Assembly (NCBI RefSeq): GCF_030384885.1
Contig: NZ_CP128613.1
DNA length: 64,000 nucleotides
Source of the DNA: Escherichia coli
Lineage (GTDB): Bacteria; Pseudomonadota; Gammaproteobacteria; Enterobacterales; Enterobacteriaceae
Reading direction: 5' to 3' (one strand)
Positions within the stretch are counted from its first letter, which is position 1, and each line of letters begins with the position of its first letter. The notes under the pieces were generated by a model. That model saw only the letters and a program-made list of their open reading frames with translations, did not search any database and had not been told where the DNA came from. Positions 73 to 681 of this stretch are shown here, in pieces. A program made the position numbers and the translations under genes.

Positions 73-94
73 GGAACAATAGTGATAGTGTTCC
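73..94. promoter_or_regulatory. Inverted repeat GGAACA-N10-TGTTCC upstream of the toxin-antitoxin pair; candidate operator
   Basis: Hexamer ggaaca at 73-78 and its reverse complement tgttcc at 89-94, about 25 bp upstream of the first start codon; a third ggaaca copy at 102-107. Function is inferred only. Confidence 0.3.
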
Positions 95-118
95 TTTCGA
101 GGGAACAAGGATGAAGAG

Positions 119-397
119 ATGATAATGAATTTCAGACACAAGGGATTGCGTGACTTGTTTCTTCTCGGCAAAACCTCCGGCGTTATACCGACGCAAATCA
201 AACGATTACGCCACCGACTCGCTGTGATTGATGCAGCAAGCTGTCTTGCTGATATCGATATGCCCGGCTACCGACTACACCCGTTAAGCGGCGATCGTGA
301 TGGAATTTGGGCGATATCTGTCTCGGGCAACTGGCGAATCACATTTGAATTCGTCAATGGCGATGCATACATACTGGATTACGAGGACTATCACTGA
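119..397 (+). CDS. HigB-like toxin (RelE/ParE superfamily, plasmid-killer type), 92 aa
   Basis: Small ORF ending in the family-typical motifs [21 protein letters not shown] and DYEDYH; its stop overlaps the start of the downstream HTH gene (cacTGATGaaa). Confidence 0.6.
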
Positions 398-681
398 TGA
401 AAATGGCCAATCATCCCCGCCCGGGGGACATTATTCAGGAATCACTGGACGAGCTGAACGTCAGCCTGCGCGAGTTTGCCAGAGCAATGGAAATTGCGCC
501 CTCAACGGCAAGCCGATTGCTGACCGGAAAAGCGGCATTGACGCCAGAAATGGCAATTAAACTTTCCGTGGTGATCGGCAGTTCGCCGCAAATGTGGCTG
601 AATCTACAAAACGCCTGGAGTCTGGCTGAGGCAGAAAAAACGGTAGATGTGTCGCGACTACGCCGTCTGGTTACGCAATAA
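397..681 (+). CDS. yddM: HigA-like antitoxin / XRE-family HTH regulator, 94 aa
   Basis: 94-aa ORF with an HTH segment ([23 protein letters not shown]); start overlaps the toxin stop; sits beside fdnI as yddM does in K-12 (from memory). Confidence 0.65.

Follow-up and report, generated by a model that had tools for sequence, protein, structure and literature searches.

A probable chromosomal higB-higA operon of the Rts1 subtype between adhP and fdnI of Escherichia coli

Between adhP and fdnI, the Escherichia coli chromosome analyzed here carries two small genes on the + strand, both starting with ATG. The window, by which we mean the whole 64-kb stretch of DNA that was analyzed, is over positions 1-760 100% identical to the adhP/fdnI interval of the E. 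coli 2013C-4282 chromosome, with fdnI convergent. The first gene, higB (119-397, WP_000605673.1), encodes a 92-aa HigB-family toxin that is predicted from homology to be a ribosome-dependent mRNA endonuclease. The second, higA, which is yddM (397-681, WP_000781370.1), encodes a 94-aa XRE-HTH antitoxin/repressor. The TGA stop of higB (395-397) and the ATG start of higA/yddM (397-399) have one base in common (TGATG). Rts1-type higBA shows this 1-nt overlap too, as does every homologue from Escherichia, Citrobacter, Buttiauxella and Cedecea. A sequence-only reading of this DNA had described a toxin-first pair with overlapping stop and start, and its coordinates, sizes and gene order are exactly right. 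By eye, a Shine-Dalgarno sequence AAGGA (107-111, +) lies 7 nt before the higB ATG, while GAGGA (384-388, +), placed within the 3' end of higB, may serve higA/yddM and would permit translational coupling. Where yddM and fdnI converge, folding revealed a hairpin (683-710, -14.1 kcal/mol, z = -3.7) that belongs to neither strand in particular and has an A-run at one edge and a T-run at the opposite edge. It is likely a bidirectional intrinsic terminator; the consensus terminator scan of the locus did not list it. REP-containing units, each about 178 bp long and each repeating the terminator stem, can stand in tandem and in variable copy number in the yddM-fdnI spacer: there are none in the window (682-731) and in ST131, one in B2 APEC O18 and in the bat isolate A3, and two in K-12 (compared spacer regions L002 3291-3696 and L006 1164-1391). 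Elsewhere in the window, a SECIS_3 selenocysteine insertion element lies inside fdnG (4682-4740, - strand; 84 bits, cut-off 63 bits), which explains why the mechanical ORF list splits fdnG at an in-frame TGA (ORF 2275-4686, 803 aa).

The higB product scores 64.4 bits with the Pfam model HigB-like_toxin (PF05015; cut-off 27) over residues 4-92. It also aligns end to end with the Rts1 HigB structure PDB 4MCT (E=1e-31). The HMM search thus bears out the RelE/ParE-fold, HigB-like toxin proposed from the letters. Six residues, H54, N71, R73, D90, Y91 and H92, are present at the same positions as in Rts1 HigB and are invariant in an alignment of 10 sequences with identities down to 52%. In the Rts1 enzyme H54, D90, Y91 and H92 are critical to ribosomal mRNA cleavage (Schureck et al., PMC5027501), R73 touches the scissile phosphate, and the adenosine preference is set by N71 (PMC5027501). 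The HigB-type C-terminal motifs seen by the sequence-only reading are therefore intact as D90-Y91-H92, together with H54. Loss of key catalytic residues, which it had named as an argument against a toxin, was looked for, and all six residues are kept. Position 57 is a serine in the window protein and a lysine in Rts1 HigB; the exchange K57A did not abolish toxicity of the latter (PMC5027501). A literature search found no published experiment on this particular toxin. The window HigB differs from the B2-type allele in two residues (I27V and S41C).

The 94-aa partner scores 93.7 bits with TIGR02607 (antidote_HigA; cut-off 47.7), and it also matches PF01381. Its sequence is exactly that of K-12 YddM and of the 'antitoxin HigA' of E. 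coli CFT073 in PDB 2ICP/2ICT. An XRE-HTH partner of the HigA type had been expected here, and both the model match and the identity to a solved structure agree with this. For K-12 YddM, DNA binding in vivo was confirmed by ChIP-exo (PMC6237786). As judged by dN/dS values against Citrobacter (toxin 0.04-0.13, antitoxin 0.03-0.08), the intact genes of both partners are under purifying selection. In seven of the ten E. coli/E. albertii yddM alleles compared, 2-14 of 285 sites are changed with zero amino-acid change, whether the toxin is present or not. The window yddM allele itself is rare, with identities of at least 99% in only 3 of 5413 records, and 11-22 of 285 sites separate it from the other Escherichia alleles compared; six alleles that encode the identical protein (B2, ST131, bat A3, K-12, E. 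albertii and WP2-S18) are 11-14 sites away. Compared with the B2 allele, higB is much closer (dS 0.05) than yddM (0.20), and this difference suggests a mosaic or recombinant history of the window alleles.

Upstream of higB, four conserved hexamers stand in otherwise divergent DNA: TGTTGC (60-65), GGAACA (73-78), TGTTCC (89-94) and GGAAC(A) (102-107). When 23 unique upstream sequences are aligned without gaps, the hexamer columns carry on average 1.76 bits of information, compared to 0.81 bits for flanking and other columns; the toxins encoded behind these sequences go down to 61% identity. A template of the four hexamers has its best placement exactly at position 60. The inner two hexamers form the inverted repeat GGAACA-N10-TGTTCC (73-94, +) that had been reported upstream of the pair; it is present and extends to GGAACAATA/TAGTGTTCC, 8/9 complementary with a 4-nt gap. 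With at most one mismatch this pattern has a single match in the 64 kb, and 14 of 100 window shuffles also contained at least one (0.14 expected), so by chance statistics the repeat alone is not significant. Its significance comes from the conservation of the hexamers across the upstream sequences.

We think that the hexamers probably pair as two 6-N7-6 operators, positioned over the -35 and the -10/+1 regions as in Rts1, rather than as the N10 repeat. Candidate operator O1 (TGTTGC-N7-GGAACA, 60-78, +), proposed from conservation, overlaps a putative -35 element TTGCGC (62-67, +), which was placed by eye and matches TTG only. Candidate operator O2 (TGTTCC-N7-GGAACA, 89-107, +) has perfect palindrome halves and overlaps the 3' part of a putative extended -10 element, TGATAGTGT (83-91, +), and the likely transcription start. 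The -10 element was also placed by eye, and its TGnTAnnGT pattern is conserved in the upstream alignment. The consensus promoter scan of the locus returned no sigma-70 promoter; binding of RNA polymerase has been mapped in the adhP-yddM interval of K-12 (PMC3946193). Apart from the hexamers, the two-operator reading draws on the spacing, the rarity of the sites and the layout of the Rts1-type palindromes. Both N7 gaps are invariant in the 23 upstream sequences, and TGTTCC-N7-GGAACA with at most one mismatch occurs at only two sites in the 64-kb window, 60-78 and 89-107, side by side. An Rts1-type locus (L007) has two 19-bp palindromes, 30 bp apart, at the same position upstream of the toxin. 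In Rts1, the operators O1 and O2 coincide in part with the -35 and -10 elements, and each is bound by one HigA dimer (PMC12266136). Operator contacts C-30, G-24, G-8 and C-2 have been published for Rts1 (PMC12266136); the comparison made here uses only the overlap of O1 and O2 with the promoter elements. An automated repeat search listed the 89-94/102-107 pair and not the 73-78/89-94 pair. The operators are kept in the toxin-less K-12 allele.

It is rather unlikely, though by no means far-fetched, that one YddM dimer recognizes GGAACA-N10-TGTTCC as a whole. Its 6-mer arms are perfect and extendable as described, both are conserved, and the repeat encloses the putative extended -10 element. However, the middle gap is N9 rather than N10 in two Citrobacter amalonaticus sequences (L012 and L014) while the flanking N7 spacings never vary, and the equally conserved outer hexamers at 60-65 and 102-107 would be left unexplained. 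The 6-N7-6 arrangement is moreover that of two Rts1-type palindromes. A centre-to-centre distance of 16 bp is also long for a compact HTH dimer. The earlier proposal of an autoregulatory operator thus holds in part: both arms are conserved near a putative promoter, but rather than pairing with each other, they more likely belong to O1 (as its right half) and to O2 (as its left half).

Taken together, the pair very probably forms a type II toxin-antitoxin operon on the chromosome that belongs to the Rts1 subtype of the HigBA family, and a mechanism can be proposed for it by homology. A single promoter, formed by the -35 and extended -10 elements described above, would drive higB and then higA/yddM, and translational coupling through the TGATG overlap would tie antitoxin synthesis to toxin synthesis. 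HigB would enter the ribosomal A site and cut mRNA at A-rich codons, with H54 as the predicted general base, R73 as the stabilizer of the transition state, and Y91, D90 and H92 acting on the leaving group. A HigA/YddM dimer would bind and neutralize HigB. Alone or together with HigB, HigA/YddM may occupy the 19-bp palindromes at 60-78 and 89-107, covering the -35 and -10/+1 regions, and thereby repress the operon.

The closest described system is the founding member of the family, HigB-HigA from the Proteus vulgaris plasmid Rts1 (compared through PDB 4MCT, 4MCX, 4YPB and 6CHV). Both operons place the toxin first with a 1-nt stop/start overlap, and in both the toxin start is preceded by two palindromes with a spacing of about 30 bp. 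The toxins are each 92 aa long, 57% identical over their full length and equipped with the same catalytic residues, and the antitoxins share an N-terminal HTH and 40% identity. There are also clear differences. Rts1 is plasmid-borne, whereas the window pair is chromosomal and vertically inherited beside fdnI; the half-sites are TGTTCC/GGAACA in the window and TATTAC/GTAATA in Rts1; the antitoxin measures 94 aa compared to 104 aa; and K57 of Rts1 HigB is replaced by S57. The window HigB is the nearest chromosomal relative that we found of the archetypal Rts1 HigB, and its active site is complete. GraT-GraA of Pseudomonas putida (PDB 6F8S) belongs to the same HigBA family and is much more distant (E=3e-7 for the toxin, E=2e-11 for the antitoxin); GraT has a disordered N-terminus with a derepressor role (PMC6393540, PMC12266136). 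The K-12 HigBA system YgjN-YgjM shares the name and the toxin-first order with the window pair, but it resides at a different locus (fadH-rlmG) and is of a different subtype, in which the HTH of HigA is C-terminal (PMC6987408, PMC7232551).

The suspicion that the module might be unannotated did not hold. RefSeq annotates the pair wherever it is present, as 'RelE/ParE family toxin' and 'yddM: HigA family addiction module antitoxin', and in 2020 Bustamante and Vidal described it as TA20 (ParE-2/HigA-2) in AIEC NRG857c and UPEC CFT073, with only the antitoxin at this locus in K-12 and HS (PMC7232551). We checked the coordinates given for TA20, and they designate the same locus, adhP-toxin-yddM-fdnI. 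The toxin of TA20 (WP_000605675.1) is two residues away from the window allele, and the name alone differs. The HigA of CFT073 is the same 94-aa protein as the window YddM, and K-12 has this antitoxin without the toxin gene. The module is hence already known from its RefSeq annotation, from a solved antitoxin structure and from the printed absence of the toxin in K-12. We considered a 'higBA' knockout in CFT073 (PMC3464220) as a test of this locus and rejected it: the loci in that study are syntenic with MG1655, the window contains no match to the primer used for the knockout, and the locus deleted there is the K-12-type hig locus, YgjN-YgjM, not the adhP-fdnI pair.

The two genes differ in their distribution. 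At a coverage of at least 80%, yddM is present in 5408 of 5426 complete E. coli genomes (99.7%), while the toxin gene is found in 1328, so that about 75% are without it. The sequence-only reading had supposed that the module might be strain-variable, and it is. Among the 1328 toxin copies, 545 (about 41%) match exactly one frameshifted allele that includes O25b:H4-ST131. In this allele (L004 601-878, Ecol_AZ161) a 1-nt deletion in codon 33 leads to a stop after 35 residues, and RefSeq labels it 'frameshifted'. An intact toxin gene is therefore present in at most about 14% of the genomes. The doubt about an annotated toxin gene beside yddM in K-12 was justified. Alignment with K-12 BW25113 and WP2-S18 shows that K-12-type strains miss a segment of 272 bp (125-396, +) bounded by ATGAA at 125-129 and 397-401, and as a consequence yddM stands directly behind the old promoter region in these strains. 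Every toxin-less genome in the match list shows one common boundary, with the match beginning at query position 392.

Several further variants of the interval were observed. In the O157:H7 strain TR01 (L040 602-770) a different deletion joins the operator half GGAACAATAAT to the last 47 nt of higB. The upstream DNA of this single genome is a mosaic of toxin-bearing and K-12-type alleles, and the allele could be a recombinant. Some toxin-less strains have an IS200-family transposase just upstream of yddM. Downstream of adhP, toxin-bearing Escherichia alleles contain a stretch of about 51 nt (GCCTGTTTTGCGAGACGCTTTCCGCAATTT...; L001 3970-4020, its end being window 1-20) that is recognizable in Citrobacter (L008-L025, around 1350-1400) and absent from K-12-type alleles, in which the remaining DNA upstream of the operators is strongly diverged.

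With one genome scanned per species, E. albertii (99% protein identity) and about ten Citrobacter species (82-89%) were found to have higB-higA next to fdnI. The copies in Buttiauxella and Cedecea are more distant (61-63%), and adhP and fdnI are absent from their 1.5-kb flanks. From the shared fdnI synteny it follows that the module is ancestral at this locus in Escherichia and Citrobacter, and that absence of the toxin reflects loss. Citrobacter species also show independent decay of the toxin at their syntenic loci: the toxin is frameshifted in L027, reduced to a 26-aa remnant beside an intact higA in L037, and N-terminally truncated in L026, which has no match to higA. At least four independent routes of toxin loss can be told apart, namely the 272-bp microhomology deletion, the ST131 frameshift, the deletion in O157:H7 TR01 and the Citrobacter decays. 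The toxin gene has been repeatedly lost or broken, and the antitoxin gene is now a core gene. Given that about 75% of the genomes are without the toxin gene and that 41% of the remaining copies are frameshifted, the toxin is dispensable and often selected against.

Such a pattern raises the question whether the toxin ORF of the window is itself a non-toxic relic nearing loss, with YddM as a stand-alone transcription factor forming the working part. We regard this as improbable for the allele at hand. The counts of yddM and higB with its 545 frameshifted copies, the independent decay in Citrobacter (L026, L027 and L037) and in TR01, the invariance of the YddM protein across alleles 4-5% apart in DNA, and the ChIP-exo targets of YddM in toxin-less K-12 (PMC6237786) would all fit such a scenario. 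However, the window ORF is intact with all catalytic residues, only I27V and S41C separate it from the B2-type allele, and a toxin dN/dS of 0.04-0.13 against Citrobacter is not that of neutral decay. A ParE-type gyrase poison, for which the published name ParE-2 with its assignment to the ParE_toxin superfamily cl21503 (PMC7232551) and the RelE/ParE label in RefSeq would speak, is extremely unlikely, with PF05015 as the sole match, no ParE model matching at E up to 0.01, NCBIfam RelE_StbE remaining sub-threshold (17.8 bits, cut-off 27.9) and 57% identity to an mRNA endonuclease whose full catalytic set is kept; since no ParE model matched, the name 'ParE-2' is imprecise, and less precise than HigB.

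With the pair read as a HigBA operon of the Rts1 subtype, the added value of this analysis is descriptive: it consists of the close relation of the toxin to Rts1 HigB, of a likely operator layout derived from conservation, and of a clean set of naturally occurring forms of toxin loss, all next to an antitoxin that is core and invariant. This set is a convenient natural test bed, and the YddM that K-12 already has would be expected to protect it from this toxin. What we find most interesting to explain is the contrast between the core, unchanging antitoxin and a toxin that is purged again and again. We can tentatively suggest, as one possibility that we hold to be less probable than not, that YddM, with its invariant sequence and its intact operators, is a domesticated antitoxin selected for a role independent of the toxin, be it that of a stress-linked transcription factor or that of a standing immunity against incoming HigB, while higB would be a selfish passenger that is repeatedly purged. 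If the immunity variant were true, YddM would protect E. coli against HigB toxins encoded on plasmids or on recombined alleles.
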